A stretch of DNA of 64,000 nucleotides. Source: Thermoplasmatota archaeon (lineage in GTDB: Archaea > Thermoplasmatota > E2 > JACPAO01 > JAHFTW01). Position 1 is the stretch's first letter; each line of letters begins with the position of its first letter. The position numbers and the translations under genes are program-made. The notes beneath the pieces are model-generated. The model was not told the DNA's origin and did no database searches. It worked only from the letters and a program-made list of their open reading frames with translations. The stretch spans positions 187,780 through 251,779 of the forward strand of contig JBBSVQ010000001.1 in NCBI GenBank assembly GCA_038046725.1, given 5' to 3'. Shown here in pieces: positions 44,461-64,000 of the stretch.

Positions 44461-46248
44461 CTAAGAAGGACTAGGTTCCCCGGCTAGCAGCATGAAGTAA
44501 AGCATTGCCAGCGCCGCTACGGGCCAGGCGAATCTGAATGCCGTGATGGCCTTGGCGGCGCCTTGCAGCGATGAAAGGGATTGCGTCAACAATACGCCAG
44601 CGAAGGCTAGGAATCCAGCAATCAGAACTTGGTTGGAGTGTAACCGATCGACCGCACCTTGCCAGTCCGCGACGCTTAGCGTCCAGGCGGTGGCGGCTCC
44701 GATATAGAGTAGCCATGTCGGGTAAACTGAGGACGATATCGGAAGTCTAGTCCGAATGCGGATCCAAAATTTGCTGGTCATCGCGAGCGCTCTTTGCAGC
44801 GGGAACAAGTGCCACTTAGATCCAGCAACAAAGCCAAACATCCCACCTGCTGCGCGATTCCATCGTTCTCCAAAACCGCCGAGTTCCTTGAAGGAGAGTT
44901 TCATCCAGTCTTCGATTACGCGCTCCGGAAAAACGACCTCGAGGTGTTCGGCGTCGCGACGAATCAAGCTCTGGCCATCTGGCTTTTCCAGAATGACCGG
45001 GTCGAAACTTGGCATGCGAAGCTTAGGCCAGGCGCCAACTAGGTTGGGAAGCAGGGCGCGATCAAACCGCCAACCTTCATCGTGTGGTGTTCGTTTTGAA
45101 ATCGGTCGGGCAACACGATAGAGTCGAGGCCATCGTGGTTCTTCCATAATGAATCCGTGTGGCGCAGTGAAGCGGGCGTGATAGGTGCGCGCAGCAGCTG
45201 GTCGGTCCACCACGATGGTCTTTGGAAAAGTCATCGCTAGGAAGGCCCACCAAAATAGCGATATCAACAACCATACCGCCAACGCGAGCAGGTACGTCGT
45301 CCGATACACGAACCATCCTGCCCAGAATAGGAAGTTCAGAAGAGTGTTCAGCACGACTTGCGCTGCGGTTTTCATCCGCCCATTTGCGGCTGCAGCCTGG
45401 CGATTCTGGCCTGCCTCGGCGTTAGGAGTCCAACCGTCAAACCACGGCCTTGGGGTGGGGGTGGGAATATCCTCGGGCCATCGTGTGGTTTGCACATCGC
45501 TCGAGAAATGGTCTACGATGAAACGCGGATGTCTTACCTCCGCCCTGTCGCCCGTTCGGTATGGGCCGGCACTTACGGATGGACTAAATGAGGGTGTTAT
45601 CGCTTGCTGCGGCGGGAGGACTACGAGCAAAGGAGGTAGTCCCAAGCAGGCGTCTGTGATGAGCTGTTGAATGTTGTCCAAGTCATCGGCGAGCATCCCG
45701 GCGGTGTCATTTTCCTCTTCGACATTGTTCACCAGCAAGGTGGCCTGAAGGTCTTCCACGCCGGCCAGGCAGGTTAGTTGCAAATCTGGATGCGCCGAGC
45801 ATCCGTTCGTGTCGATTTCGTCGAAGACCTGGCGCACCAGGCTGGTCACATGGCGAATGTCATCCCCCAAATCAGGAAGAATTTGCTCGATTTGTTGCGC
45901 GACCAACCCGAATGCACGCGGAATTGCATCGAAAGCAAGCTCGGAAGTGAGCACGACCAGGGAGTCGCCGTTGGCGGCGATTACGCGCTTGCGGAACCGG
46001 AAAACTTCGAGACTTGGAGAATGAAGACGAACGACAAAAAGGAGCCTTGGCCCTTCATTGCGAATCAGGTACCTTGTCTTGATGTCCTTGGAACCGCGCC
46101 GGGCTAATCTTTGGGTCAAGAACGGTCGTTCCACTTCGATTTCTGCCACCACGCGGTCATATGCAGAGTATAGCAGGGCGTCTGCCGCCCAATCCACAAG
46201 ATCCTCGTCGGATGGCATCGAAGTCAAACCGGGCGTATTGTACGCCAA
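44461..46248 (-). CDS. Large hypothetical protein (595 aa) with central TM helices, in a lower-GC segment
   Basis: Intact ORF with normal amino-acid composition, GC about 50-55% against about 67% for the flanks, and two or three central TM segments. No domain recognised. Confidence 0.5.
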   Translation of the reverse strand: MAYNTPGLTSMPSDEDLVDWAADALLYSAYDRVVAEIEVERPFLTQRLARRGSKDIKTRYLIRNEGPRLLFVVRLHSPSLEVFRFRKRVIAANGDSLVVLTSELAFDAIPRAFGLVAQQIEQILPDLGDDIRHVTSLVRQVFDEIDTNGCSAHPDLQLTCLAGVEDLQATLLVNNVEEENDTAGMLADDLDNIQQLITDACLGLPPLLVVLPPQQAITPSFSPSVSAGPYRTGDRAEVRHPRFIVDHFSSDVQTTRWPEDIPTPTPRPWFDGWTPNAEAGQNRQAAAANGRMKTAAQVVLNTLLNFLFWAGWFVYRTTYLLALAVWLLISLFWWAFLAMTFPKTIVVDRPAAARTYHARFTAPHGFIMEEPRWPRLYRVARPISKRTPHDEGWRFDRALLPNLVGAWPKLRMPSFDPVILEKPDGQSLIRRDAEHLEVVFPERVIEDWMKLSFKELGGFGERWNRAAGGMFGFVAGSKWHLFPLQRALAMTSKFWIRIRTRLPISSSVYPTWLLYIGAATAWTLSVADWQGAVDRLHSNQVLIAGFLAFAGVLLTQSLSSLQGAAKAITAFRFAWPVAALAMLYFMLLAGEPSPS

Positions 46249-47590: not shown

Positions 47591-50500
47591 TCAGTCCGAG
47601 ACCACCGACCACCTGGCGGGGCTTGGTGCCTCGGGCGGCTTGGGGAACAGCGTCAGCCGCCCCGACGGCACCTGCCAAGGCGAGACCCCCCTAAGGGTCC
47701 GGCTATCGGGCGCGCCCTCCACGGCTGCCCCGGCGGGGACTGGAAGGTCGCCCACCCCCAAACGCCACGCGATGAGGTCGGGGACCTGGGCGGCGGCATA
47801 CAGCTTCCATTGCCCGTCCGCCCGGCCGACGGGCCACATGGGCACGTCCCCGCCGAACACGACGCCGAAAGCTGCCGGTGCCCGCCGTGGGCCGACTACG
47901 GAGAAGACCGCATGCTGGAACGTCAGCGATCCTCGCATTCCCGGAGCAGCGCTGCCCTGGAGCGTGTGGCCGTCCTTCTTTGCGACGAACTGGTCGCCAC
48001 TGGCCTGGACGGTCCACCCGGCTGAGCCGAGCGCACGGGCGATGTGCGGCAAGGAGGAAGTCCAAAGTTCTCGGCTGGCGGTGGTGCCGGGGCGGCGGTT
48101 GCTCCACACCTGGGAAAGCGCCCTTTCCTGGACGTTGCGCCGGGCTTCTTGGAGGGCCTGCCAGGGGTCCATGGTGGGCCCCGCATCCTCGCCTAGCCGG
48201 GTCCGCACCTCGTTCCGGATGGCGTCCGCTACAATCTGCGGGCATTCTCCGACGGCCAGCTCGTAGTCCTCGCGGCGGGCCATGAGCCGGCCGTACATCC
48301 GGGCCTCGACGCTGTTGGGATACCAGAGGTTGACAACGTCGACCTGGGGAGCCCTCTGGCCCAAGCGCGCCACACGCCCAATCCGTTGCTCGAGACGGGC
48401 AGGGTTCCAGGGCACGTCCACGTTGATGACGACGCGGGCAGCCTGTAGGTTCAGGCCTTCGCTGGCCGCGTCCGAGCAGAACACCACCTTCGCAAGCCCC
48501 TCTTCCAGAGCTGCGCGGACCGTCTCCTTCGAGGCACGAGTACGCTGGCCGGAGGACGCCACGAAGGCGTCCTGCCCAGTGTACTTGGCGAAGCCGACGT
48601 CGGGGAACCATTCCTCGAAGGCCTGGATGCACCTGTCGACTGTGTCGGTGTAGCGCGAGAAGACCAGCACTTGGTCACGTTCCAAGTACGACGCCAGCAG
48701 CTGGCGGAGCTCCCTCATCTTTGGGTCAGGTTCCTGCTCGTCCGCATGCAGCACGTCGAGGCGTTCAATCAGGTCCTTGATGTAGACGGCCTCGGCCTGC
48801 TTGGCGGTGGCCACTTCGGCAGGGTCGACCGCGGCGCTAGGGGCGGTGCCTTCGAGGCCTGGGTCCTCGTCGGTGTCGTCGTCCTCTTCGTCGAGCCCCG
48901 ACTCGACGCCAGCTGCGATGCTGTCGAGCCGTTGCATCCGCTTGAGCAGGCTGATGCGGGCCGCGTAGAGGCTCGATGCCAGCCTTTGCTGGTAGGAGCA
49001 TCTCGCGAAGCCGAGCGAAAGCGGCCGGTCCGGGTGCGCGGCCTGCTCGACGCGGCCGTAAGCACGAGACAGGTACTCGTCGACGCTGCGGTAGAACTCC
49101 ACGACTCCCGGGTCGACCTTGGCAATCGGAGCATGCAGGCGCCTTTCGGGGAACCGGTAACCGAACTTCTCGAGCACCTTCCTGGTGTTCCTGATCGTCA
49201 GTAGCGAAGCGGGGTGGGCATCGACCAGAAGAGGGTAAACCTCAGGCCAAGCAGCCCTTGCTTTGATCGTCGCCTGGGCATTGGCCGAATCCTGTGACGC
49301 AAGGGTCTTGGCTGTCGTGGTGGCACCGCTTGCCGGCTGCCAGCCGTAGTCCTTGCGCGCTTGGGCAAGCCACTTCAGGCTCCACTTGGCGTCCTCGAGC
49401 GTCGGCAGCGCGGCGCCGAGCGCCAGCACGCGGAGCGAACGTGCGTACTCGCCTTCACCCTTGACCGGGTCGGTCCAGGCCTGCGGAAGGCCAAGGAGGC
49501 GCAGCAGTGCGTGGAACTCGGCCGGTTCCAACTGGACCGGTGTCGCCGTGAGCAGCAGCAGGTGCGGCACCTTGGTCGCGACGGTGTCGAGCGTGCGCCA
49601 CAGCAAGGTCGGGCGCAACGTGCCGTCGAGGTCGCGTCGCACTCGCGCCGCATGGGCTTCGTCGACGACCATGAGGTCTGGCAGATGCGCCCCAGACAGG
49701 AGGTTCCCTCCGTCGCGGCTGCCGCGGACCAACTGCGCTGACACCAGGCGAAGCGCGGGCGAACCTTTGCCCAGCGGGTGGTCGCTCGGCGCCCGGTGGA
49801 AGCGCCCGTCGGGGTCCACGTAGGCCTTGGCCCCGGAATCGTACCGCCAGAAGCTGAGCCCGAAATGGTGCTGCATCTCTTCCTGCCACTGGCGCATCAC
49901 GTTCTTCGGGGCAAGAATCGTGACGCTCGAGACGGCCTTGGTTCGAAGGAGGTGGGCAATCGCAGCGCCGGCCTCCAAGGTCTTGCCGAGGCCGACCTCG
50001 TCTGCCAGCAGGGCGCGGACGGGCCATCTTCCTAAGCAGTCGAGGAAAGCGCGTTCCTGGTGGGGGAACAGGGCCGACGGGCCCAAGTTGAGAGAGCCAA
50101 GCAGCGGGCTCTCGCGGAAGAACCTGTCAAGCACGGAAGTCCTCGGCGAGGCCTTCGACTGGGCCACGGGCTGGTGCTCGGTCTCGCCGAGGGCGGCCAG
50201 CAGGTGGTTCGCAAACTCCTGGTCAAGGACTCGGACCGCAACGTCCTCGCGGCGACCTTGCCAGATCTGCTCGAAGCTGTCCACGCGCTCCCTCGTCTGG
50301 GCGGGTTCCTCCCAGGAACGGAAGACGTTGAGCTCCTCGTAGTTGGTGGCCATCCCTGGCACGGTCTCGTTGGCGCTGCCACTGGCGGCCACGATGTCGC
50401 CGCCGGCGTCGGTGAAGAGCAGCCGCTTGCTGTGGAAGATTCCGGTTCGTCCGTAAGGGACGGCCACACGTACCTGGAGCAGCCCTTCCTTCATCATCCA

Positions 50501-50902
50501 GGCAACGGTCGCGATGCGGTTCCGCGACAATTCGTCACGAAGGGTCGCCACGCTGTCAAGGAGGCGCTGCCCGACGGCCGCCATGATTTCCTCAGGCGGC
50601 GGCGAGCCAGCGGCTTTTGCCAGGTCAGCGGGCACGTCGTGGACGCCCAGGACGAGGCGCATCTTCCCGCGCCTGCGCCACAGCCCTTCGAGGCCATCGG
50701 CGATCGCGACCAGAGCGGTGACATTGAAGAAGCCGGTCAGCCGGTCGTAGGCGACGGCTTCGGCGAGCGCGGGTTGCACCAACCCTTGCAGGAGAACATC
50801 GGCGCGCCCTTCGTAGAAGGAACGGAGGCCCAGGCCGCGTAGCCCTGCCAATGTCTCACCGACCGAGCGCGTCCAGGACTGCGTCGCAGAACGCCTGGTC
50901 AC
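47591..50902 (-). CDS. PLD-family (HKD) nuclease fused to SNF2-family helicase
   Basis: N-terminal HKD motif ...GIFHSKRLLFTDAGGDIVAASGSANET.... SNF2 ATPase with ...LADEVGLGKT..., DEAH box ...LMVVDEAHAARV..., and helicase-C ...LNLQAARVVINVDVPWNPARLEQRIGRVARLGQ.... Confidence 0.85.
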   Translation of the reverse strand: MTRRSATQSWTRSVGETLAGLRGLGLRSFYEGRADVLLQGLVQPALAEAVAYDRLTGFFNVTALVAIADGLEGLWRRRGKMRLVLGVHDVPADLAKAAGSPPPEEIMAAVGQRLLDSVATLRDELSRNRIATVAWMMKEGLLQVRVAVPYGRTGIFHSKRLLFTDAGGDIVAASGSANETVPGMATNYEELNVFRSWEEPAQTRERVDSFEQIWQGRREDVAVRVLDQEFANHLLAALGETEHQPVAQSKASPRTSVLDRFFRESPLLGSLNLGPSALFPHQERAFLDCLGRWPVRALLADEVGLGKTLEAGAAIAHLLRTKAVSSVTILAPKNVMRQWQEEMQHHFGLSFWRYDSGAKAYVDPDGRFHRAPSDHPLGKGSPALRLVSAQLVRGSRDGGNLLSGAHLPDLMVVDEAHAARVRRDLDGTLRPTLLWRTLDTVATKVPHLLLLTATPVQLEPAEFHALLRLLGLPQAWTDPVKGEGEYARSLRVLALGAALPTLEDAKWSLKWLAQARKDYGWQPASGATTTAKTLASQDSANAQATIKARAAWPEVYPLLVDAHPASLLTIRNTRKVLEKFGYRFPERRLHAPIAKVDPGVVEFYRSVDEYLSRAYGRVEQAAHPDRPLSLGFARCSYQQRLASSLYAARISLLKRMQRLDSIAAGVESGLDEEDDDTDEDPGLEGTAPSAAVDPAEVATAKQAEAVYIKDLIERLDVLHADEQEPDPKMRELRQLLASYLERDQVLVFSRYTDTVDRCIQAFEEWFPDVGFAKYTGQDAFVASSGQRTRASKETVRAALEEGLAKVVFCSDAASEGLNLQAARVVINVDVPWNPARLEQRIGRVARLGQRAPQVDVVNLWYPNSVEARMYGRLMARREDYELAVGECPQIVADAIRNEVRTRLGEDAGPTMDPWQALQEARRNVQERALSQVWSNRRPGTTASRELWTSSLPHIARALGSAGWTVQASGDQFVAKKDGHTLQGSAAPGMRGSLTFQHAVFSVVGPRRAPAAFGVVFGGDVPMWPVGRADGQWKLYAAAQVPDLIAWRLGVGDLPVPAGAAVEGAPDSRTLRGVSPWQVPSGRLTLFPKPPEAPSPARWSVVSD

Positions 50903-51665
50903 CGTCCGGCGACTTCCGCTTCACGGCACCGGCGTCCGCGAGCTGCGACAGCAGGTCCGTGAGGAAGCCCAGCTGCGGACCAGAGAACGGCTTGCCCGTG
51001 TTGTTCTCCTGGTACCCGCGCTTCTTCGCGAAGTCGCCCAACGCTCCTCGTGCCTTCGGCGTTAGCACGTTGTACTGGGCGGCCTTCTTTGCCATGTGCC
51101 AGATGGCCTTCGACGGAAGGTTCGCGACGCGCTCCTCCTCGGAGGGACCTGTGATACCCCTGACTGCGGCCAAGGCCGTCAGATGCGGGCTGCGGCCGGC
51201 CGGCATGCCGTCGACAGCTGCCAGCACCTCGCGCAGCTGGGCGGGCTCAAGTCCGATGATGTCGAGCCAGGTCGTCTTCGGCGGTGGAGCGCGGTCCAGG
51301 ATGGCCAGGATCTCCTCGGGTTCGGCCCCCAGCTGCAGGACCGCGTAGACTTCGGCCTCGGTCGCGCCGACCCATTTGGCAGCCTGGTCGATGTCCAGGC
51401 CGGAGACGGTGTACGTCGCAGAAACCCGTTCGAGGTAGCCCTTGAACGGGTTGCTGGGCGACCGCCAGGCCTCGATGAACGCCTCGATGCGGCCACCGGA
51501 GCCAGACCCCGGAAGGGGCGGGAGCGCCGGTGGAGCCGCAAGGAGAGCAGGGGACGCTTTGGGAGGGGCGACCTTCGCTGCGTGCTTGGGCGTGGACCTG
51601 CTGGGCTTCTCCGATTCCCGCTTCGCCTTGGCGGGGGCCTTCTTCTTGCCGAACACGTCACTCAC
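50856..51665 (-). CDS. Hypothetical protein with Lys/Pro-rich N-terminal tail (269 aa)
   Basis: MSDVFGKKKAPAKAKRESEKPSRSTPKHAAKVAPPKA..., then a helical domain. Overlaps the GHKL gene stop by 8 nt and the PLD-SNF2 start by 47 nt, so the start is uncertain. Confidence 0.45.
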   Translation of the reverse strand: MSDVFGKKKAPAKAKRESEKPSRSTPKHAAKVAPPKASPALLAAPPALPPLPGSGSGGRIEAFIEAWRSPSNPFKGYLERVSATYTVSGLDIDQAAKWVGATEAEVYAVLQLGAEPEEILAILDRAPPPKTTWLDIIGLEPAQLREVLAAVDGMPAGRSPHLTALAAVRGITGPSEEERVANLPSKAIWHMAKKAAQYNVLTPKARGALGDFAKKRGYQENNTGKPFSGPQLGFLTDLLSQLADAGAVKRKSPDGDQAFCDAVLDALGR

Positions 51666-53103
51666 CTGCCGCCGCGTTGAGCCACAGGTTGCGGATGCGA
51701 CGGGCCTCGTCCGGAGGGTAGCCCTTTTCCCGTTCGAGGAAAAGCGCGAGCGAGTCGGACATCGCCAGGAACATTAGCAGCTTCTTGTCCTCGATGTACT
51801 TCACGAGCTTCGAGGAGCTGTTCACGACGGCCTGCAGTTCGCTGCCGCGCTCGGACTCGTACATGTAGGACCAGGGCGTGATGCTCTCGCCGAGGTCTTC
51901 CATCGTGTAGGTCAAGGTCAGCGGTCCGTCAGGGAGGTGGACCTTGTTCGCGTCGACGGTGACTTCCTTTCCCTGGTCGACCTGGACGGCAGGCCCCTTC
52001 CCGGCACCGGGCTCCGCAAAGGCCCCGTCGCCCTGCGCTGCCGTGCCGTCGGGCGCCTTGAACATGGAGGAGAGGACCTTGCCTGCGGCCAACGCCTGCT
52101 GCGCCCCTTGGATGGCGCGAGCGAAGCGGGTGCGGTCGCCCCGGCCACGGATCGTCGTGGCGCTGGCCTTCTCGAAGACCTTCATCTTCTCCTTCATGAC
52201 GTCCGTGGCCGCGCGCCACTCTGCGCTCTGCTTGGCGAAACCTTGCTTGTTGAAGTTCACCGGAACGAAGTCCACGTGCATCTCGCCGACGATGCGGGAG
52301 TTCATTGTATGGACGCGGAACCAGTCCTTGTTCCAGGGCTCCACCAGCTGGTTCAGCTTGTAGAGGTTGATCCCGAACTTGTCGTCGTTGTGGGTGATCT
52401 TGTCGAGGCCGACCCAGCCGTGCACCCTCCATTCGCCGCGCGGCCCGCACTTCTCGTCGATCTCGAAGCGTTTGTCCTCGATGAGGCTGTACGCCTTGGG
52501 AAGCACCACGTCGTTGCCCACGCGGAAGACGTCGCCCCGCTCGATGTGGGGCTTGTAGGCGTGGCCCAGCTGTTCCACGACCGCCCCGCGCATCGTGTCG
52601 GGTTGGCGTAGGTTCCGTACCACGATGGCCGTGCCATGCGCCCGGCCTTCGAGGGGACCGTCCTTGTCGGGCTTGCCCGCATGGATCACATGCTTCCACC
52701 GGACGCCGCTCTTCTGCTTGGCCCGCGCGCGCCACTCGTCAAGGTCGAAGGTCACCGAGTATTCGACGTCCTTGCCGTCGGGGCGAGTGTGGATCTCCCA
52801 GATGCGGCCTAGCGAAGCGCAGGCGGTCTTCATGCCAAGGCCGTAGACGCCCTTGCGCCCCTTCCGCGGAAGGAAGTCGTCCATGTTGACGCCGAGCCTG
52901 ACCGCTTCCGTCAGGATGTCCTGCTCCATGCCGGTGCCGTTGTCGACCACGACGATGCGGTCCCTGGCGAGGGTGACGTCCACCTCAATCGGCGTGTCGC
53001 CGACGCGCGCGTCGATGCTGTTGGCGACGAGCTCCACGATGGCCTCGGGGACCTTGAAGTTCGTAGCCCCAATCTTGTCGAGCATCGACTCGTCCGGAGT
53101 CAT
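51658..53103 (-). CDS. GHKL (Bergerat-fold, MORC/MutL/HSP90-like) ATPase
   Basis: N-box ...EAIVELVANSIDARV..., G1 ...IVVVDNGTGM..., G2/G3 ...GVYGLGMKTACASLG.... Start at the internal ATG (MTPDESML). The 103 upstream codons of the ORF are Arg/Cys-rich. Confidence 0.7.
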   Translation of the reverse strand: MTPDESMLDKIGATNFKVPEAIVELVANSIDARVGDTPIEVDVTLARDRIVVVDNGTGMEQDILTEAVRLGVNMDDFLPRKGRKGVYGLGMKTACASLGRIWEIHTRPDGKDVEYSVTFDLDEWRARAKQKSGVRWKHVIHAGKPDKDGPLEGRAHGTAIVVRNLRQPDTMRGAVVEQLGHAYKPHIERGDVFRVGNDVVLPKAYSLIEDKRFEIDEKCGPRGEWRVHGWVGLDKITHNDDKFGINLYKLNQLVEPWNKDWFRVHTMNSRIVGEMHVDFVPVNFNKQGFAKQSAEWRAATDVMKEKMKVFEKASATTIRGRGDRTRFARAIQGAQQALAAGKVLSSMFKAPDGTAAQGDGAFAEPGAGKGPAVQVDQGKEVTVDANKVHLPDGPLTLTYTMEDLGESITPWSYMYESERGSELQAVVNSSSKLVKYIEDKKLLMFLAMSDSLALFLEREKGYPPDEARRIRNLWLNAAAGE

Positions 53104-53243: not shown

Positions 53244-54038
53244 TTACGCGGCAAGCGCCGCCACGTACTGCTCCCGTTGGCTCCAAGGGACCGGCGTGAT
53301 GGCATAGTTGCGCAGGGCCTGCAAGGCAGTGGGCGACGCCGGCTTCTCGATGTCGTTCACAAGAACGTAGGCGTCGGTCTCCTGGGACCGAGCTTCGCGC
53401 GTATCCTGCCAAGAGAAAATCGCCGCTTCGATTGTGTTCTTGTTCGTGCCGTTGAGCGCGCGCAAGGCGCGCTCTGGTGCCTTGGGCGACTTCGGGATGA
53501 TGAAGTCGAAGTGGTGCGTGTACCCGCTGCGGCCCGAAAGGCGCGAATTGTATACGTAGCGGATTTTGTGGCCATCGAGCCAGGCGGCGACGTCCTCGAC
53601 GAACATCTGCGCGACGTTCGGCTGGGCCATGTAGAACATGTCGCCGACGGCGAGCATAGCCTGCACGATGTCGTGCTTCTTCATGGGGAAATCCCCGGCG
53701 CCCGCGAAAACCTCGAGGCGGTGCTTGTCGCTGCGCTTGACCCCGAATCCATTGAGCACTTCATCGAGGACTGCAAGACGGTGCTTGCCGGCCATCTTGA
53801 AGCCAGACATGGCAAGGTCGTTCAGCACGTAGCCGTCGTCGTGGAGGAGGAATCCCTTGTCGACCTTCTGCACGTAGATCTGTAGCATGTCGTTGTGGCG
53901 GTCGAGGTACGGGGTGGTAATCTCCACGTTCGTGCCGATGTCGCGCAAGGCGGTGCTGTCGCGGAGCCATTTCCAGTGCGCGTCGAGCAGCTCCTTGATC
54001 TCCTCGCCCATGCTTGGCGGAGTGATGGGTTTGGCCAT
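53244..54038 (-). CDS. DUF1828/DUF1829-like protein
   Basis: ...WKWLRDSTALRDIGTNVEITTPYLDRHNDMLQIYVQKVDKGFLLHDDGYVLNDLAMSGF... matches my memory of the DUF1828 N-domain pattern. The family assignment is unverified. Confidence 0.45.
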   Translation of the reverse strand: MAKPITPPSMGEEIKELLDAHWKWLRDSTALRDIGTNVEITTPYLDRHNDMLQIYVQKVDKGFLLHDDGYVLNDLAMSGFKMAGKHRLAVLDEVLNGFGVKRSDKHRLEVFAGAGDFPMKKHDIVQAMLAVGDMFYMAQPNVAQMFVEDVAAWLDGHKIRYVYNSRLSGRSGYTHHFDFIIPKSPKAPERALRALNGTNKNTIEAAIFSWQDTREARSQETDAYVLVNDIEKPASPTALQALRNYAITPVPWSQREQYVAALAA

Positions 54039-54476: not shown

Positions 54477-54645
54477 TGAGGCGCCTCCCCTCTGAAACCG
54501 TTTCGAGGTTGATCTAACCGGGCCAGCGCCTGTCCAGGCGTTTCATCCCTGTTGGGCGCTTGGGACGCCTTTATGCCCTTAGCGAGGCTCGCATCGTGAG
54601 CACTGGCCATCCTGTTTCGGGTTGGCTGATGCCGGAGCAGGACGC

Positions 54646-57246
54646 ATGGCCAAGTCGGACCGGAAAGACGTCGAGACCTACGAGCACAAGGCCGCCCAGC
54701 GCCCGAACAACCCACCGGTGGGCCTTGTGACGAAGGACACGGAGGCGCGAGAGAAGCGCCGCACCTACCAATACACCGATAACGTCCACGTCAAGCCCCA
54801 CGACAAACACCAGGACCCTGCCCTGGTCTGGGCGACGAAGGCCGAGCGCACTAGCTTCGAGGTCCCGACTGTCAACCTCCACGTCCATGAGCGCATCGAC
54901 CCGCAGACGATTCTGCGCGCGGTGCGCAAGAAGGGTGCGACCGTACAGCAATCCCTTTTCCAGTCCTCGGACCAGAACCTCCCCCTATCCAAGGCAGTCG
55001 AATTCTACGAGCACGCGCAAGGCTGGTCAAACCGGCTCGTCGCCGGCGACAGCCTGCTGGTGATGAACTCGCTCATCGAGAAAGAAGCGATGGCCGGCAA
55101 GGTCCAGATGGTCTACTTCGACCCGCCTTACGGCATCGAGTACAAGTCGAACGCCCAGCCATTCGTCGACAAGCGCAGCGTTGCCGAAGGCGACAAGGAC
55201 GCCGACTTGGACCAAACGCCGGAGCAGATCAAGGCGTTCCGTGACACCTGGGAGCTCGGGATTCACTCCTACCTCTCGTTCATCCGCGACCGGATGTTGC
55301 TGGCGCGTGAACTCCTGACACCAAGCGGCAGCGTGTTCATCCAGATTAGCGACCAAAACCTCCACCACATCCGCGAGGTGATGGACGAGGTGTTCGGCCC
55401 AGGTTGCTACGTCGTCACGATTCCTTTCAAGAAGAAGGGCAGCCAGCGCTCCGGCTTGCTCCGGCCCGTCAACGACTACTTGATCTGGTATACTCGCAGC
55501 CCCGTTGATTCCGGCGTGCCGAAGTTCCACGCGCTCTTCGAAAAGTGGGCCCTCGACCCGGAAACACTCTCGGAATTCCGTTACGTTGAGCTTCCGGGCG
55601 GCAAAGAAATGCTACTCGGGCACCTGAAACGACCTGACGGGTCGGACGTCGACTATGCAAGTCACCCCGAGCTCCTGATGGCGGACTACCCCAAGGCGCG
55701 CCTCTACCGAGCCAACCCTCTCAAGAGTGGCGGCGTTCGAGCCAACCAGAGCCTGCCGTTCACCTACAAGGGCAAGACGTACGAGCCCGGCCCGGGCAAC
55801 TGTTGGAAACACACAGCTCGAACCGATGATGGAAGCCCAAGCGGAATGGACCGCCTCGCCAAGGCCGGCCGGCTAATCGGAACGAAAACCGACTTGCGCT
55901 ACCGCAACTACCTGGATGACTTCGGTTACAAACCTGTGTCCAACTGGTGGGATGGACTCGGCGGGGCCTCCAACCCAATCTACGTCGTGCAGACCAACAC
56001 GGAAGTCGTGAAGCGCTGCATGCTGATGACGACAGACCCGGGCGACCTGGTAATTGACATCACTTGCGGCTCCGGAACGACGGCTTACGTCGCCGAAGAA
56101 TGGGGCCGTCGCTGGATGACATGCGACACGTCGCGCGTTGCGGTGACGCTTGCCAAGCAACGGTTGATGACTGCGGCTTTCCCGTTTTATCGACTTCGTC
56201 ATCCGGACGAAGGCGTTTCGTCCGGACTTCGCTACAAGCAGGTTGCGCACATCACGTCCTCGACGATTGCGAATGACGACAAACCCGTGATGGAAGACGT
56301 GTACGATGACCCCGAAGTCGACGGGTCCAAGGCGCGCGTTACCGGACCCTTCACTGTCGAAGCCGTGCCGGCGCCTGTCGTTCTGAGTTTGGACGGATCG
56401 CATCAAGGGCTGGCACCCTCGAATGGTCAGGACGTTGCCCGGAGTGGCGAAACGGCACGCGAGGATCAGTGGAGGACGCAGCTCATGCAAACCGGGATTC
56501 GAACGCTGAAGGGACAGGTGGTCCGTTTCACGCGTCTGGAACCCGCTGCGGCCAGTACCTACTTGCACGCGACTGGTGAGACCGCCGAGACACCATCTCG
56601 TCGTGTGGCGGTATCGTTCGGGCCCGAACATCACCCCATGGAACGCAAGCAGGTCGAGTTTGCATGGGAAGAAGCGCGCCAGATGGCCGACCGCCCTCAA
56701 CTCCTTGTCTTCGCGGCGTTCTCGTTTGATGCTGACACGGCGAAGGACATCGATAACGCCAAGCCAGACAAGATGGGCATGACGTTCTGGAAGGTCCAGA
56801 TGAACACGGACCTGCTCACCGAAGACCTCCGTAAGGGGGGCAAGTCCGACGACTCGTTCTTCCTCGTCGGCCAACCCGATGTGGCCTTGGAGCGCATCAA
56901 GGACGGCGAACACAAGGGAAAGGTCCGCGTCGTTGTCCGGGGCTTCGACTACTTCGACGTCCGCAGCAGCAAGCTGGAATCGGGCAACTCTTCACGCATC
57001 GCGGTATGGATGCTCGACCCCGACTACGACGGGCGCAGCGTGTTCCCGCAGCAGGTCTTCTTCCCCATGGCTGCCGACGACGAAGCGTGGGGTAGGCTTG
57101 CGAAGAACCTCAACGGCGAGATTGACTTGGACCGCATCAAGGCCTACTGGGGGAAGGAATCTCTCCCCTTCCAGCCCGGCAAGCGCGTCGCCGTCAAGGT
57201 CGTTGATGACCGTGGCATCGAGAGCATGAAGGTCTTGGACGTGTAG
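54646..57246 (+). CDS. mod: Type III-like R-M modification methyltransferase (N6A/N4C beta-class, DPPY)
   Basis: ...NRLVAGDSLLVMNSLIEKEAMAGKVQMVYFDPPYGIEYKSN... (motif IV), then motif I ...LVIDITCGSGTTAYVAEEWGRRWMTCD.... At 866 aa it carries a C-terminal extension. Confidence 0.8.
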   Translation: MAKSDRKDVETYEHKAAQRPNNPPVGLVTKDTEAREKRRTYQYTDNVHVKPHDKHQDPALVWATKAERTSFEVPTVNLHVHERIDPQTILRAVRKKGATVQQSLFQSSDQNLPLSKAVEFYEHAQGWSNRLVAGDSLLVMNSLIEKEAMAGKVQMVYFDPPYGIEYKSNAQPFVDKRSVAEGDKDADLDQTPEQIKAFRDTWELGIHSYLSFIRDRMLLARELLTPSGSVFIQISDQNLHHIREVMDEVFGPGCYVVTIPFKKKGSQRSGLLRPVNDYLIWYTRSPVDSGVPKFHALFEKWALDPETLSEFRYVELPGGKEMLLGHLKRPDGSDVDYASHPELLMADYPKARLYRANPLKSGGVRANQSLPFTYKGKTYEPGPGNCWKHTARTDDGSPSGMDRLAKAGRLIGTKTDLRYRNYLDDFGYKPVSNWWDGLGGASNPIYVVQTNTEVVKRCMLMTTDPGDLVIDITCGSGTTAYVAEEWGRRWMTCDTSRVAVTLAKQRLMTAAFPFYRLRHPDEGVSSGLRYKQVAHITSSTIANDDKPVMEDVYDDPEVDGSKARVTGPFTVEAVPAPVVLSLDGSHQGLAPSNGQDVARSGETAREDQWRTQLMQTGIRTLKGQVVRFTRLEPAAASTYLHATGETAETPSRRVAVSFGPEHHPMERKQVEFAWEEARQMADRPQLLVFAAFSFDADTAKDIDNAKPDKMGMTFWKVQMNTDLLTEDLRKGGKSDDSFFLVGQPDVALERIKDGEHKGKVRVVVRGFDYFDVRSSKLESGNSSRIAVWMLDPDYDGRSVFPQQVFFPMAADDEAWGRLAKNLNGEIDLDRIKAYWGKESLPFQPGKRVAVKVVDDRGIESMKVLDV

Positions 57247-57248
57247 CG

Positions 57249-57695
57249 ATGGCTCAGGCCATGGTCGAGAGACTAAACGCACAACATTGGTTGCTCATCA
57301 CGAGTCGGGCTTCGTGGGAGCGAATGGAGCAAGCTGGCGCGTGGGCATTCGCAGACAAGAGTCTGAAACGGGCGTCCATGCTTCACCGAGGCACGCAGGG
57401 CGTCGTGTACTGCACCGGCGAGAGCTCCTTCGCAGCGGTTATCGAGTTCACCGGTGAATTCCGCCAGCACGCCCGCTCAACGGTCTTCGGGGCCCTCTAC
57501 CCGCACGCCATGCCGTTCCGCGTCGTCGCCGCCCCTGGCTTCTCACTCCCGATGGCGGCCGTGGTTCAGACCCTCGACTTCATCGGCAAGAAGGATTACT
57601 GGTTCAGCTACCTTCAAGGGCAGGCTCTTCGCCCTTTGTCCCGTGAGGACTTCCACGTTCTGGCTTCTCGGTTGCAGACGAAGGGGGCTCGGTGA
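57249..57695 (+). CDS. EVE/PUA-like (modified-base reader fold) protein between mod and res
   Basis: ...AQHWLLITSRASWERMEQAGAWAFADKSLKRASMLHRGTQGVVYCTGESSFAAVIEFTGEF... matches my memory of EVE/ASCH-type PUA-like domains. Its stop overlaps the res start (TGATG). Confidence 0.45.
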   Translation: MAQAMVERLNAQHWLLITSRASWERMEQAGAWAFADKSLKRASMLHRGTQGVVYCTGESSFAAVIEFTGEFRQHARSTVFGALYPHAMPFRVVAAPGFSLPMAAVVQTLDFIGKKDYWFSYLQGQALRPLSREDFHVLASRLQTKGAR

Positions 57696-60523
57696 TGGTC
57701 GGAGTACCGAAGATTGATCGCCTCATCCAGAACAACCCGTACCGCGAGCCTGCGAGGTACTGGAAGTTCAACGCGACCAGCCGCACCTGGCGCTTGACCG
57801 AGGGACGGCGCGAGGCGGGTTACATGGTGCAGTCGGGCGACCCTGACGACCCCGGCGATTATCGGGCACTACGCCTGGCCAACCAGGTCCGTCCGCGCGT
57901 CAAGGAATGGCGGGCCGCCGGCTACCCAGGCATCACGGGAGTGACTCGGCGACTGCTGGAACACTGGACGGACCCCAACGCCCGGACGTTCCCGTTCTTC
58001 TTCTGCCAACTGGAAGCCATCGAGACGCTTGTCTGGCTCGCGGAAGCCCCGCCGTCCGCCAAGCAGGGCCTCGACTGGGAGACCGACGGCGGCGACTTCG
58101 TGCGCGAGTGCTGCAAGATGGCCACCGGCACGGGCAAGACTATCGTCATGGGCATGGTCATCGCGTGGCACGTACTCAACAAGGTCGCGTACCCCCAAGA
58201 CCCGCGTTTCAGCAAAAACATCCTTGTCGTTGCCCCCGGTCTAACGGTCAAGGAGCGCCTTCAGGTGCTGAAGCACCCCGACGGCATCTACCGGGAATTC
58301 AGCATGATTCCCGGCGCCATGCGCGACCAATTCGCCCAAGGCCGCGTCGTTGTCGAGAACTGGCACACCCTCGCCCGCCGCGAAGAGGTCGGCCCACGCG
58401 TCATGCGCAAGAAGATGGGCGCTGAGTCGGACGAAGCGTACTGCCGCCGCGTCCTGGTAGACATCGCGAAAGCCAGCAATCTCCTCGTCATCAACGACGA
58501 AGCCCACCACGCGTGGCGCGTCGACCCGAAACGCAAGGCCGAGTTCAAAGGGGAAGACAAGGACGAAGCCCAACGCGCCACGGTCTGGATCGACGGCCTC
58601 GACATCATCAACAAGGCCCGCGGCATCCTGAAGTGCTACGACTTCACCGCCACGCCCTTCGCATCAGCGGGCAAGGGAAACCAGGAGAACGTCATCTTCG
58701 AATGGGTCGTCAGCGACTTCGGCTTGAACGACGCAATCGAGAGCGGGCTCGTCAAGACGCCGCGCCTGCCAACTGTGGACAACAGCATCCCGGACGCCGA
58801 GACGTTCCGCAGCAGACTCCTGCACATCTACGGTGAGTCCGAAGTGCAGAAGGACTTGAGTCGGAAGGCCAAGCCAGAGGAACCGCTGCCCCAACTGGTT
58901 CGCAACGCCTACGAACTGATGACCAAGGACTGGGCCAGGACGCGCGACGACTGGGCCAAGGAAGGCCATCCCGTTCCCCCCGTGATGATTACTGTCGCCA
59001 ACACCACATTCACGGGAGCCCGCATTGAGCACGGATTCCGGACCCACGACCTGGGCGTCGAAGCTGCACACGACGAGAAGGGATTGCTCCGCATCGACAG
59101 CAAAATGCTCAAGGACGTCGAAGAGCGCGACGCGGGAGTCTCGCTCGCTTTGGACCTGGACGACGAAGCCGAGTTGACGGCGGATCAGCGCGCAGAGCTG
59201 CTCCGCCGTCAGGTCGACAGCGTGGGCAAGCCCGGCAAGCCCGGCGCCCACATTTTCAACCTCGTCAGCGTCATGATGCTGACCGAAGGCTGGGACTGCC
59301 GCACCGTGACCCACATCATGGGCCTGCGCGCGTTCACTTCCCAGCTGCTCTGCGAGCAGGTCATCGGCCGCGGCTTGCGCCGCACGTCGTACGAGACCGA
59401 GCAGGTCGAGTTCCCCGACGGCCGCAAAGAGCAACTCTTCGCCGCCGAGTACGTCAACGTGTTTGGCATCCCGTTCTCGTTCCTGCCACTCGAATCGGAC
59501 GAGACGGGGACATCCAAGAAGCCACGCCCCACCACGGACATCCACACACTAGACGAGCGAAAGGACCTGGCTATCAAGTGGCCGAACGTGCTCCGCATCG
59601 AGCACCGGTTGAGCCACCAGCTCCGCCTGGACACTGCCAAGGTTCGCCCGTTCAAAATCGACCCCTCGCTCGTGAGCACAGAAGCGCAACTGGCGCCCTT
59701 GATGGACAACCGACCAAACCCTGACCGCGCGACGCTCATTGAGCTGCAGGATTTGGCCGACACGCGCTACCGTCAGCAGGCCATTGTGTTCCGCCAAGCG
59801 AAGAGCCTCTTCGAGAACATGAAGGAAGACTGGAAGGGCAACCCCGCCACCCTCGCATCCCAGACGGTCCGCCTCGTGGAGGAATTCCTGGCCAGCGGCA
59901 AGGTGGACTTCGGCGGCGTCAAGTTCGGCGAAGACGACGTCCGCCGTCGCATCGTCTTGGCACTGAACACGCCCCGAATCGTTTACGCCCTGAAGGACGC
60001 CATCACGCAGCAGTCCAGCGAAGAGTCCCACATCGTCCTCGATGCGACACATCCGGTAGGTTCGACAGAAGACATGCTGCCGTGGGCCACGCGCAAGAAG
60101 TCGCGCGAAACGAAGAAGAGCCACGTCAACCGCGTCGTCCTCGACTCGGCATGGGAGGCTTCGGACGCCTACGTCATCGACCAGTCGAAGCACGTCGAGG
60201 CCTGGGCCAAGAACGACCACCTCGGGTTCGAGATCGCCTACATCGAGATGGGCCGGGTTGCCAGCTATCGCCCCGACTTCCTCGTCCGCCTGACCAACGG
60301 CGTCAACCTGGTACTAGAGACGAAGGGAAAGGAGCGCGACGCCGACCGGACCAAGTGGACGGCCATGGACGCTTGGATTGCGGCCGTCAACCAGCACGGC
60401 GGGTTCGGGCAGTGGGAATTCAGGACGTCGCGACTCCCCGGCGAGGCGAAGGAAATCCTTGCAGAGCTTGCCGCACGTGGTCCCGTCGGACCCGCTTCTG
60501 CAGGCAAGGCACAATCTAGTTAG
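57695..60523 (+). CDS. res: Type III restriction enzyme Res subunit (SF2 helicase + C-terminal endonuclease)
   Basis: Walker A ...KMATGTGKTIVMGMV..., DEAH ...LLVINDEAHHAW..., motif VI ...QVIGRGLRR..., and a C-terminal nuclease-like region ...VVLDSAWEASDAYVIDQSKHVEAWAKNDHLGFEIAY.... Confidence 0.85.
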   Translation: MVGVPKIDRLIQNNPYREPARYWKFNATSRTWRLTEGRREAGYMVQSGDPDDPGDYRALRLANQVRPRVKEWRAAGYPGITGVTRRLLEHWTDPNARTFPFFFCQLEAIETLVWLAEAPPSAKQGLDWETDGGDFVRECCKMATGTGKTIVMGMVIAWHVLNKVAYPQDPRFSKNILVVAPGLTVKERLQVLKHPDGIYREFSMIPGAMRDQFAQGRVVVENWHTLARREEVGPRVMRKKMGAESDEAYCRRVLVDIAKASNLLVINDEAHHAWRVDPKRKAEFKGEDKDEAQRATVWIDGLDIINKARGILKCYDFTATPFASAGKGNQENVIFEWVVSDFGLNDAIESGLVKTPRLPTVDNSIPDAETFRSRLLHIYGESEVQKDLSRKAKPEEPLPQLVRNAYELMTKDWARTRDDWAKEGHPVPPVMITVANTTFTGARIEHGFRTHDLGVEAAHDEKGLLRIDSKMLKDVEERDAGVSLALDLDDEAELTADQRAELLRRQVDSVGKPGKPGAHIFNLVSVMMLTEGWDCRTVTHIMGLRAFTSQLLCEQVIGRGLRRTSYETEQVEFPDGRKEQLFAAEYVNVFGIPFSFLPLESDETGTSKKPRPTTDIHTLDERKDLAIKWPNVLRIEHRLSHQLRLDTAKVRPFKIDPSLVSTEAQLAPLMDNRPNPDRATLIELQDLADTRYRQQAIVFRQAKSLFENMKEDWKGNPATLASQTVRLVEEFLASGKVDFGGVKFGEDDVRRRIVLALNTPRIVYALKDAITQQSSEESHIVLDATHPVGSTEDMLPWATRKKSRETKKSHVNRVVLDSAWEASDAYVIDQSKHVEAWAKNDHLGFEIAYIEMGRVASYRPDFLVRLTNGVNLVLETKGKERDADRTKWTAMDAWIAAVNQHGGFGQWEFRTSRLPGEAKEILAELAARGPVGPASAGKAQSS

Positions 60524-62109: not shown

Positions 62110-62179
62110 GCAGCTTCTCGCAGACGCACGCGGGCGGGCTGCCGCACGCCAATACCTTGCCACTGGGTCGCGACCGGGC

Positions 62180-63190
62180 GTGCTCCTCATCGGCGAGAGC
62201 GACGCGGACGAGTCGAAGCTCATGAAACTGCTGGGGCGCGTCCCTCATCTCGGGCGCCGCGACGACGCCGCGCGCGCCATGGGCGTGACCCGTACGCCAG
62301 GGGGAAAGGACATCGCGGAGGCCGAGGCAAAGCTATGGGCCACGGGTGAGGCCCGGCACCAGTCCGTCAAGGGAGTGGTGATGACGAGGGACCTGGACAT
62401 GGACTACGCGCAGCATGTCGATGACAGGTCAATCCAAGTTGGAACGTTCCCGGGTACGCGTCTAGCAGCCGTTGTGGAAACCGCGCTCGCAAAGGGCCTT
62501 GGAAGCGGTGGTGTCCGGGTCGATGTGGTGGTCACGCCACGCAGCGACCTGGAGACAACCGTACTTGCCTACGCGCGCGGTGCTCCTCCCGGCCTGGGGC
62601 CCGCCGGCCAGGAGGACCTTTGGCGCCGGCTTGTCGCGCTCGCATGGCTCCAGCAAGCGATTGTATGGGAGCTCCAGACCGACGGGGCCGTGGTGAAGTC
62701 GAGTGTCTTCTACGACGACAAACCTGCTCCTTGGGAGAGCGATGCAGTGAGCGCGGCGCGAACCTGGAACGACGCCAACATACGCCGCGCTGCCGATGCA
62801 TTTGCAAAGGCGCTAGGCGCCGAATCCAAGGCTCCGGCCCAGTCCTTCCCAGGCCTCACTTTGGTTGACAAGCGGGGCAACCATGTCTCACGAGACCACC
62901 TGGCAGGGGCACTCGAGTTCCTTGAGCGGCACCGTGAGGCGTGCGAGGGAACGGATGGCGCGACTACGGGCCCTGCAGCAGCGCTTGACCGATTCGCCCG
63001 CTCGCCCTGCGGTTGCGTGTGGACCTTGGTCAACGGCCATGCCCTTTTCCGATTGACGGCTGCCCTCGTGGGCCAGGCCTCCCGGACCCTTGAGGGGCGG
63101 GTCGTCTGGGGAATGGTGGAGTCCAGGGAAATCCAAGCAGCTGCAAAGTCAGACCCGTCTTTCGGGGCGCGGCTGGACAAGCTCCTGTGA
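62180..63190 (+). CDS. Toprim/DUF4435-like (OLD-family nuclease, AriB-like) partner protein, GTG start
   Basis: (GTG)LLIGESDADESKLMKLLG... carries a Toprim-like conserved Glu plus acidic cluster, and a later DLDMDY resembles the DxD motif. The frame has no ATG before MKLLG. An upstream extension to 61901 would overlap the ATPase gene by 209 nt. Confidence 0.45.
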   Translation: MLLIGESDADESKLMKLLGRVPHLGRRDDAARAMGVTRTPGGKDIAEAEAKLWATGEARHQSVKGVVMTRDLDMDYAQHVDDRSIQVGTFPGTRLAAVVETALAKGLGSGGVRVDVVVTPRSDLETTVLAYARGAPPGLGPAGQEDLWRRLVALAWLQQAIVWELQTDGAVVKSSVFYDDKPAPWESDAVSAARTWNDANIRRAADAFAKALGAESKAPAQSFPGLTLVDKRGNHVSRDHLAGALEFLERHREACEGTDGATTGPAAALDRFARSPCGCVWTLVNGHALFRLTAALVGQASRTLEGRVVWGMVESREIQAAAKSDPSFGARLDKLL

Positions 63191-63254: not shown

Positions 63255-64000
63255 ATGCCTGGTATCAGGGTGGTCGAGCTCTTCGCCGGCGTCGGCGGCT
63301 TCAGGCTTGGCCTCGACCGGACGAACGGCCCGTTCGAGACCGTCTGGTGGAACCAGTGGGAACCCGCAACCAAGGTCCAGCATGCGTGGGCCTGCTACGC
63401 CCGCCGGTTCCACGGCGACGTCTCCGCCGCGCCCCCCTTCAGCAACACCGACGTCACCAAGGTCCCCGTCGACGCCGTCCCGCAGCACGACCTCCTTGTC
63501 GGCGGGTTCCCCTGCCAAGACTACAGCGTGGCCACCACGCTCGACAAGGCCGGCGGACTCCAAGGAAAGAAGGGTGTGCTGTGGTGGGAGATCAAGCGCA
63601 TCCTCGACGCCCGCAAGCCTCGCTACGTCCTGCTTGAGAACGTGGACCGGCTGCTCAAGTCGCCTGCAAGCCAAAGAGGGCGGGACTTCGGCGTCCTGCT
63701 CGCATGCCTGCGGGACTTGGGTTACGTCGTGGAGTGGCGTGTTGTCAATGCAGCCGACTATGGCAACCCCCAGCGCCGCCGACGCGTGTTCATCTTCGCC
63801 GCCCGCGACAACAGTGGCCTAGGCAAGAGCATCGCCCGCAAGGCGCACCGCAGCAACTACCTCTTCACAGAAGGGCTGTTCGCCAAAGCCTTCCCCACGG
63901 ACTTCGAGCCCTTCGCCGTCGAGGAAGAAGAAGGGGAGCTTTTCGACAACGACGTCCGCGAAGTGAGCGCGTCGTTCCACCACCTGTTCCAGAACGCCGG
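63255..64000 (+). CDS. dcm: DNA (cytosine-5)-methyltransferase, partial (runs off window end)
   Basis: Motif I ...VVELFAGVGGFRLGL..., motif IV ...LLVGGFPCQDYSVA..., motif VI ...YVLLENVDRLL..., motif VIII ...QRRRRVFIFAAR.... Confidence 0.85.
   Translation, partial: MPGIRVVELFAGVGGFRLGLDRTNGPFETVWWNQWEPATKVQHAWACYARRFHGDVSAAPPFSNTDVTKVPVDAVPQHDLLVGGFPCQDYSVATTLDKAGGLQGKKGVLWWEIKRILDARKPRYVLLENVDRLLKSPASQRGRDFGVLLACLRDLGYVVEWRVVNAADYGNPQRRRRVFIFAARDNSGLGKSIARKAHRSNYLFTEGLFAKAFPTDFEPFAVEEEEGELFDNDVREVSASFHHLFQNA

Follow-up and report, generated by a model that had tools for sequence, protein, structure and literature searches.

An HKD nuclease fused to a SNF2 motor in a MORC-associated gene cassette of a Thermoplasmatota archaeon

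What does a protein do that carries a nuclease and a DNA motor on a single chain, and with which partners does it act? The question is raised by a gene on the minus strand of a 64,000-nucleotide stretch of DNA from a Thermoplasmatota archaeon (GenBank assembly GCA_038046725.1, contig JBBSVQ010000001.1, positions 187,780 to 251,779 of the forward strand), which is referred to here as the window and whose own numbering is used for all coordinates given without a locus label. An earlier note on this DNA had read the gene as one polypeptide joining an HKD nuclease domain, of the phospholipase D (PLD) family, to a SNF2 translocase, and this reading stands, as the open reading frame (ORF) exists exactly as described and contains all of the quoted strings. 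The follow-up reported here extends from this HKD-SNF2 protein to the genes that accompany it, i.e., a MORC-family ATPase, a small conserved protein, and a C5 cytosine methylase. Taking the whole chain of argument together, we put at roughly 0.6 the probability that the HKD-SNF2 protein serves a MORC-type, methylation-linked defense system as its ATP-driven restriction arm.

The fusion alone adds little and holds no surprise for a specialist. The worth of the locus lies in its context, namely a compact, widespread yet rare cassette that joins an effector of this class to a genuine MORC ATPase and to an orthologous C5 methylase. As such, it offers an entry into the biology of prokaryotic MORC proteins, in particular whether a MORC can gate a nuclease and whether cytosine methylation is sensed in the process.

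An HKD nuclease and a SNF2 motor on one chain

The longest ORF occupies 47591..50902 (minus) and gives 1103 amino acids (aa) from a GTG codon, according to the ORF list and its translation; residue numbers in this text follow this frame unless the 1086-aa numbering is named. The N-termini of aligned homologues (38-49% identity) fall at the position of L18, whose codon is a TTG at 50851, located 5 nt past the upstream stop TGA (50856-50858) and with GGTGAG ahead of it. For these reasons, the true start is probably TTG 50851, so that the revised gene covers 47591..50851 (minus), with its stop at 47591-47593 and a product of 1086 aa, and the 17-residue extension of the longest ORF (50852-50902) is probably not translated. 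Consequently, the overlap of about 47 nt with the upstream gene described earlier is an artifact of the longest ORF, while the tight operon coupling to that gene, which the overlap had been taken to suggest, is retained. An identical protein is present at NCBI as a "helicase-related protein" of 1062 aa, from a metagenome-assembled genome (MAG) of a Candidatus Thermoplasmatota archaeon; it starts at V42, and this start is probably too short because the nearly invariant Y30 is lost.

The nuclease domain comprises residues 18-235 (50198..50851, minus), as delimited by an AlphaFold2 (AF2) model, by Foldseek, and by the PbeA profile discussed later. The model of residues 18-276 has a predicted local distance difference test score (pLDDT) of 87.1 and a predicted template modeling score (pTM) of 0.80, and the top 30 matches that Foldseek returns for it from the PDB all belong to the PLD superfamily, led by SauUSI (E = 5.9e-6), NgoAVII-R, Zucchini, and BfiI, with E values from 6e-6 to 1e-4 and a probability of 1.00. 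The catalytic motif, FHSKRLLFTDAGGDIVAASGSANET, spans residues F156-T180 (50363..50437, minus); within it, H157, K159, G175, S176, N178, E179, and T180 show no variation among 23 homologues of 38-49% identity, and D165 hardly any. The earlier note had allowed that the likeness to an HKD motif might be coincidental, with no PLD fold predicted; AF2 does predict that fold, and the likeness is not a coincidence. At the level of alignment and predicted structure, the N-terminal domain is thereby confirmed as a genuine PLD/HKD fold with its catalytic residues intact. The linker that follows, residues 236-275, is poorly conserved (mean pairwise identity 0.22, against 0.47 for the domain).

The signature had first been written as HxK(x4)D(x6)GSxN. 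Its catalytic residues are correct, but the spacing is not, as the protein reads HxK(x5)D(x9)GSxN (H-S-K-RLLFT-D, and then nine residues to GSAN). Four residues more than in the canonical motif thus lie in the hairpin from the histidine to the GS, and the distance from the histidine to the glycine is equal in WP_124875504, a protein annotated to the family of the nuclease MtsD. The Pfam family PLDc_2 scores 17 bits, below its cut-off of 27 (E = 0.0055), and a precomputed PF13091 match is found in 6 of 120 homologues among the matches listed. The tripeptide HSK at residues 157-159 is the sole H-x-K of the whole protein, hence there is exactly one HKD motif, as had been proposed. A search for a second, degenerate copy found no other H-x-K, and the N-terminal strings YDRLTGFF and MRLVLG, considered for this role, were rejected as belonging to the first half that a single PLD domain normally has. 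Because each chain provides one HKD, we infer, by analogy with the MtsD dimer, that the active site must be assembled from two chains.

The motor follows as a SNF2/RapA-like ATPase core of superfamily 2 (SF2), residues 276-900 (48203..50077, minus), recognized by Pfam, by its relative in the PDB, and by its motifs. These are, all on the minus strand, the Walker A sequence GLGKT (residues 304-308, 49979-49993), the DEAH box (414-417, 49652-49663), motif III TATP (452-455, 49538-49549), and motif VI QRIGRVARLGQ (839-849, 48356-48388). The claim of a complete SNF2 ATPase is borne out, as motifs I, II, III, and VI are all present and invariant among the aligned homologues, and the Pfam cut-offs are passed by SNF2-rel_dom (51.5 bits, cut-off 24.9), Helicase_C (69.7 bits, cut-off 23.5), and ResIII. 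The best solved relative of the motor in a sequence search of the PDB is RapA (E = 7e-30). Two variable insertions interrupt the core, one at residues 481-560 and the other an acidic loop at about 661-715, whose acidic stretch covers residues 665-712 (48767-48910).

The chain ends with a variable alpha/beta domain, residues 936-1103 (47594..48097, minus), placed there by the end of an alignment, by the AF2 model, and by its identity values. It is the least conserved part of the protein, with a mean pairwise identity of 0.195 (the catalytic domains reach 0.47-0.56), and WP_124875504 lacks it, the pairwise alignment with that protein stopping near residue 922 of the 1086-aa numbering. Although residues 900-1103 are modeled by AF2 with a pLDDT of 85.8, the C-terminal model finds no match in the PDB by Foldseek, SauUSI included (best E = 0.07, TM 0.18), and a Pfam scan of the domain gave no hit.

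The three-gene cassette and its linked cytosine methylase

The HKD-SNF2 gene is the third and last gene of a conserved cassette, in which it is preceded by a gene for a MORC protein and by a second one for a small protein, here called SP. This order, with the genes overlapping or only a few bases apart, is seen in 12 of 12 inspected loci, i.e., the window, Haloarchaeobius, Ca. Planktophila versatilis, the Haladaptatus plasmid, and eight metagenome or MAG contigs. A metagenome scan seeded with SP only returned 31 loci, and the order is kept in all of them, as far as the contigs reach.

The first gene, at 51658..53103 (minus), encodes a MORC-family GHKL ATPase, identified by Pfam and by its homologues, of 481 aa from the ATG at 53103. 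This start is the most likely one, rather than the listed 53412 with its 103 spurious residues, because the homologues begin at the position of M104. Two Pfam families match above their cut-offs, HATPase_c_3 with 63.7 bits and Morc6_S5 with 32.2 bits, and the GHKL motifs (ExxxNxxD, DxGxG, GxxGxG, and GT) are invariant in the alignment of homologues; in PADLOC v2 the protein has a weak MzaB-like match only (E = 4.6e-7). Regarding annotation, the lesson of this locus is that three of four gene starts are likely wrong: that of HKD-SNF2 at NCBI, and those of the longest ORFs of both HKD-SNF2 and MORC.

The middle gene, SP, lies at 50856..51665 (minus) and is defined by alignments. Its product in the window has 269 aa, of which the N-terminal 55 or so form a low-complexity extension, and the homologues have 216-243 aa, with a PPxTTW motif and a C-terminal CDxVLDALG as hallmarks; archaeal and actinobacterial members are about 35% identical. 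Its fold is unrecognized: no family was found for it in Pfam, PADLOC, NCBIfam, or PHROGs, and a profile built from 20 sequences found no sequence relative in the PDB. A weak match to DUF2316 occurs in 12 of the 20 members, with a best E value of 0.0027. An impression of a pattern like that of ParB or of a helix-turn-helix remained unproven and is not used here.

The family is rare, as an exhaustive search with the SP profile reached only 161 cluster representatives out of 1.84 billion, and its distribution is patchy and crosses domains, from this archaeal MAG and haloarchaeal plasmids to actinobacteria and deltaproteobacteria. In other loci, the neighbors of the cassette are restriction-modification (R-M), abortive infection (Abi), McrBC, GmrSD, and toxin-antitoxin genes. 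A scan of viral contigs for SP found no relative and the window contains no tRNA genes; therefore, there is no sign of phage carriage or of tRNA integration. A contig scan seeded with the helicase alignment was of no use for the distribution because its patterns fell on generic SNF2 motifs, so that RapA swamped the result; only L006, L007, L009, and L011-L013 bear an HKD, and those that were checked are without MORC and SP. PADLOC v2 has no SP model and does not represent the cassette as a system, filing the nuclease only under generic profiles.

A large subclade carries a fourth conserved gene, which overlaps the stop of HKD-SNF2 and encodes 182-196 aa with an MRVxL...WREA start and no Pfam family. 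It is found in L002 (13372-13920), L089 (11366-11917), L096 (6599-7189), L097 (11324-11893), and 16 of the metagenome loci L098-L128, and is absent from the window.

At its far end, the window holds the 5' part of a gene for a C5 cytosine DNA methyltransferase (63255..64000, plus), which is missing from the ORF list and runs off the window end after at least 248 aa. Motifs I, IV, VI, and VIII read FAGVGG, GFPCQDYS, ENV, and QRRRRVF, and the match to the Pfam family DNA_methylase has an E value of 1.9e-49. This enzyme is 50-60% identical to the methylases that lie next to the cassette in L002, L087, L089, L096, and L097. The six methylases are 45-61% identical to each other, whereas the corresponding HKD-SNF2 proteins reach 36-53%, and this favors co-inheritance over chance neighborhood. 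By raw counts made without a matched control, 8 of the other 11 loci inspected have a C5 methylase no more than a few kb from the cassette; among the 13 metagenome loci whose sequence continues for 1.4 kb or more past the cassette, 12 have one. A Vsr homologue adjoins the methylase in six loci; none was seen within the window. From these sequence comparisons, the window C5 methylase is the probable modification partner of the cassette.

Two further observations concern the methylases of other loci. L001 (16451-19166) and L088 (2386-5047) encode a different, long C5 methylase of 641-668 aa (38% mutual identity), accompanied by an HhH-GPD DNA glycosylase instead of Vsr. In addition, the presence of two endonuclease folds beside C5 methylases, described in the following section, raises the question of whether one methylase may serve two restriction arms.

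Known relatives, proposed mechanism, and competing explanations

The fusion had been presented earlier as an unusual feature, but it is already the rule in MtsD, in PbeA, and in the PADLOC entries "PLD_Helicase" and "HKD+Snf2". The joining of an HKD nuclease to an SF2 motor is an established modular effector class, represented by SauUSI, PbeA, and MtsD, and is not new in itself; this HKD-SF2 effector module is also found in further operon types on plasmids. Within the class, the protein of the window belongs to an uncharacterized family, set apart by a SNF2/RapA-like motor, by an extra, unrecognized C-terminal domain, and by being partnered with MORC and SP. The matches to named families are strong: NCBI model NF042964 ("phospholipase D-like domain-containing anti-phage protein") aligns with residues 31-896 at E = 1.7e-98, scoring 331 bits where its cut-off is 1100, and in PADLOC the protein matches PLD_Helicase (3e-57) and PbeA (E = 1.3e-54, residues 21-420, profile positions 2-391 of 672). 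WP_124875504, which carries the MtsD-family annotation, is collinear and 28% identical (E = 1e-61). From annotation, operon context, and architecture, we equate NF042964 with the probable family of MtsD (formerly Gao_RL/Gao_29), the nuclease of the MANTIS system; one plasmid gene with the NF042964 annotation shares its operon with the gene of an "anti-phage-associated DUF1156" protein.

MANTIS is known from a 2026 preprint, in which the system is methylation-gated and MtsD acts downstream of three other components, namely an AAA+ ATPase, a small protein, and an N6-adenine methylase. Restriction is abolished by the PLD mutation H122A or by mutation of the Walker A lysine, and a cryo-EM structure shows an MtsD dimer in which two nuclease domains build one PLD site, BfiI and SauUSI being described there in the same way. 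The likeness to our protein extends to the domain order, with a single-HKD PLD domain and then an SF2 ATPase, to collinearity over about 870 residues, and to the same long spacing from H to GS. The logic of the system is also the same, i.e., a second ATPase, a small protein, a methylase, and an HKD-helicase. The components differ, however, since a MORC GHKL protein replaces the DUF499 AAA+ ATPase MtsA, an unrelated SP replaces the DUF3870 protein MtsB, and a C5 methylase takes the place of the N6-adenine enzyme MtsC, whose operon position NCBI annotates as DUF1156. No hit to DUF499 or DUF1156 was obtained among the eight neighbors scanned; a DUF1828/1829 protein is a further neighbor besides MORC and SP. 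Moreover, the protein of the window has the extra C-terminal domain of about 165 aa and a motor that scores as SNF2/RapA-like.

The PbeABCD system offers a second comparison. PbeA is an HKD endoDNase joined to an SF2 helicase, it has an ATPase and a small protein as partners, in some cases also cytosine methylases, and both systems occur in haloarchaea. On the other hand, the PbeA profiles match only the N-terminal half of our protein, and the ATPase partner here is GHKL/MORC and not the CxC ABC ATPase PbeC; neither DndE (PbeD) nor phosphorothioation genes are present among the neighbors scanned. SauUSI, an ATP-dependent type IV enzyme (PDB 7clg), shares the arrangement of PLD nuclease, SF2 motor, and C-terminal domain, and is a dimer. 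It differs in being autonomous and in cutting modified DNA, whereas the protein here is encoded with MORC and SP and next to a methylase; besides, the two C-terminal domains are unrelated by Foldseek, and the PLD domains are 13-15% identical. A further enzyme, HmaA of the Hma system, is a Snf2 helicase-nuclease fusion that defends against phage T4, and its PADLOC profile matches the motor (E = 1.9e-42), but its nuclease is a C-terminal PD-(D/E)xK nickase and not an N-terminal HKD domain.

The earlier note had framed the locus by class 1 DISARM, and this frame does not hold. In common with DISARM are the SNF2 and PLD activities of DrmD and DrmC and a link of defense to methylation, and the DrmD profile does match (E = 4.8e-61). 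However, the match amounts to 207 bits against a cut-off of 610, DrmC and DrmD are separate proteins in DISARM and fused here, no DrmA or DUF1998 protein is encoded in the scanned ORFs from 44 to 63 kb, and the neighbors scanned include no DrmA, DrmB (DUF1998), or DUF1156 methylase. On the plasmid of Haladaptatus sp. DYSN1 (L092, 10714-16737), genes for a DrmA-like DEAD/DEAH helicase, a DUF1998 protein, and a separate PLD protein lie directly downstream of the triad.

The gene neighborhood itself has a precedent in the computational analysis of Iyer, Abhiman and Aravind (2008). Neighborhoods of MORC, SWI2/SNF2, DCM, and VSR genes were predicted there to be R-M systems, on computational grounds only. 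MORC proteins (GHKL plus S5) are described beside SWI2/SNF2 proteins, near genes for cytosine methylases and Vsr and for HNH and type II endonucleases, with a sporadic, laterally transferred distribution, all of which resembles the present cassette. In its text, the SNF2 type is given HNH or EcoRII-like nucleases, and an N-terminal HKD appears only on Rad25-like helicases; neither a conserved SP gene nor an HKD-SNF2 fusion as the nuclease is described in that text. In the literature that could be searched, bacterial MORC defense is represented only by VcSduA (paraMORC3-Shedu) and by the 2008 analysis, nothing was found on "PLD_Helicase", and no work was found that tests the function of prokaryotic MORC proteins.

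Starting from the domains, the conserved catalytic residues, the operon, and the methylase linkage, we infer the following mechanism for dimerization, translocation, licensing by MORC and SP, and the direction in which methylation acts. Two HKD-SNF2 chains would dimerize through their HKD domains and build one metal-independent active site, which would cut the two strands in turn, by analogy with MtsD, BfiI, and SauUSI. Hydrolysis of ATP by the SNF2 motors, again judging from related enzymes, would move the complex along the DNA, or the DNA through the complex. MORC, which may act as an ATP-gated dimeric clamp as other GHKL/MORC proteins do, would select the target together with SP and license the nuclease in place and time. 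The 5-methylcytosine (m5C) introduced by the linked methylase would mark the host DNA as self, so that unmethylated incoming DNA would be cut.

Several observations weigh against this proposal. Regarding the nuclease, PLDc_2 fails to reach its Pfam threshold, and the spacing of the HKD motif departs from the canonical one. Regarding the cassette, the locus counts are redundant, many of the metagenome loci representing one freshwater actinobacterial lineage, and no experiments on it were found in the searchable literature. The methylase linkage is affected most: in the window, the C5 methylase is about 10 kb away from the cassette, with other defense genes between them and its 3' end outside the window, and no C5 methylase is present in the available sequence of the triad loci L004, L090, and L092, nor in that of L126. 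Furthermore, a type II-like endonuclease stands beside the methylase in several loci, BglII-like in L088, L096, and L097, and MutH-like in L087, so that the main affiliation of the methylase may be with an ordinary R-M pair, in which case its linkage to the cassette would reflect the structure of the island.

These last points could be taken further, by assuming that the methylases are mere island neighbors and that MORC and SP sense an infection cue, such as a phage protein or an unusual DNA structure, upon which a trigger-activated or abortive nuclease is released on any DNA, that of the host included. The type II endonucleases that several methylases have as their own neighbors and the triad loci that show no C5 methylase agree with this account, and the variable C-terminal domain and SP could be sensor surfaces selected by phages. 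Nevertheless, we regard it as unlikely, since orthologous C5 methylases, whose identity is no lower than that of the nuclease, accompany the cassette across distant hosts, a C5 methylase is present in 12 of the 13 loci that extend past the cassette, and MANTIS, the relative that has been studied, is methylation-gated. Methylation could also act in the opposite direction, in a modification-dependent, type IV-like enzyme of the SauUSI kind, whose C-terminal domain would read modified bases and direct the cutting of modified foreign DNA. SauUSI, with its PLD domain, SF2 motor, and C-terminal target-recognition domain, is indeed the best structural match of the N-terminal domain, and such a reader could be sought in the extra C-terminal domain, which is highly variable and has no counterpart in the MtsD-family protein. 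Yet the C-terminal model matches neither SauUSI nor any other PDB chain, and the protein never stands alone, being always accompanied by MORC and SP in the inspected and SP-seeded loci. In addition, the co-inherited C5 methylase and Vsr imply m5C in the DNA of the host, and an enzyme dependent on m5C would therefore be self-destructive; altogether, we consider this explanation improbable.

Two other accounts would remove the need for a separate system. Eukaryotic MORC proteins compact and silence chromatin, and among solved structures RapA is closest in sequence to the motor, from which one could picture a housekeeping role in chromatin, transcription, or repair, with a RapA-like remodeler, a MORC that compacts DNA, and an HKD domain that is inactive or only binds DNA. 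This is very hard to reconcile with the invariance of all of the HKD catalytic residues, with the rarity of the SP family at some 130-160 cluster representatives, with a patchy cross-domain distribution as expected of horizontally moved defense genes, and with neighbors that consist of R-M, Abi, McrBC, GmrSD, and toxin-antitoxin genes. Alternatively, the protein could be a drifted component of a named system, i.e., a fused DrmD and DrmC of class 1 DISARM, an MtsD, or a PbeA, as the strong profile matches to DrmD, NF042964/MtsD, and PbeA and the DISARM-like genes just downstream of the triad on the Haladaptatus plasmid might suggest. This account is largely refuted and has next to no probability left, given that the scores for DrmD and NF042964 are far under the curated cut-offs, that DrmA/DUF1998, DUF499/DUF3870/DUF1156, and the CxC ABC ATPase/DndE were not found among the neighbors scanned, and that the invariable partners are MORC and SP.

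A restriction arm guided by MORC and methylation can be developed into a broader proposal, which we offer tentatively and hold to be somewhat doubtful. The cassette and its C5 methylase, with or without Vsr, could form a distinct class of methylation-gated restriction, in which the MORC clamp reads or exploits m5C and licenses the SNF2-driven PLD nuclease, with SP and the C-terminal domain as adaptor or specificity elements. Such a class might be the prokaryotic counterpart, and possibly the source, of transposon silencing by MORC, SNF2, and cytosine methylation in eukaryotes. The cassette thereby bears on the defense-system ancestry of the eukaryotic axis of MORC, SNF2, and DNA methylation, which was already proposed in 2008.

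The surrounding defense island

The cassette lies in a defense island of the window. Besides it, the island includes a type III-like R-M system, an ATPase of the AAA_15/21 kind, and a homologue of PDC-M24B. The R-M system is divergent from the cassette and comprises three genes on the plus strand, identified with PADLOC and NCBIfam: an 874-aa N6/N4 methylase (54622-57246; PADLOC MTase_III, E = 5e-124), a 148-aa ORF without family (57249-57695), and a restriction endonuclease of the BPTD_3080 family (57692-60523; NF046055, 994 bits against a cut-off of 800). The methylase at 54622 was considered as the cognate enzyme of the cassette and rejected, as it is paired with its own BPTD_3080-family endonuclease.

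Between this system and the C5 methylase lie, both on the plus strand, a gene for an AAA_15/AAA_21 ABC-type ATPase (60547-62109), with weak PtuA/AriA-like matches in PADLOC, and an overlapping 429-aa ORF (61901-63190) with no Pfam or NCBIfam family. This pair, 60547-63190, may be a two-gene ATPase-effector defense unit inserted between the methylase and the cassette. Just upstream of MORC, at 53244-54038 (minus), is the gene of a DUF1828 and DUF1829 protein that matches PDC-M24B (E = 3.5e-91) and phrog_5059 (E = 1.8e-65). It was rejected as a member of the cassette and is probably an independent element, because it is not conserved beside the cassette elsewhere.

Downstream of the cassette follows a 595-aa ORF (44461-46248, minus) with no family in any of the libraries. 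It lies in the stretch from 42 to 48 kb, where the G+C content is the lowest in the window (0.565-0.615, against about 0.65), a hint that horizontal transfer brought in this end of the island.

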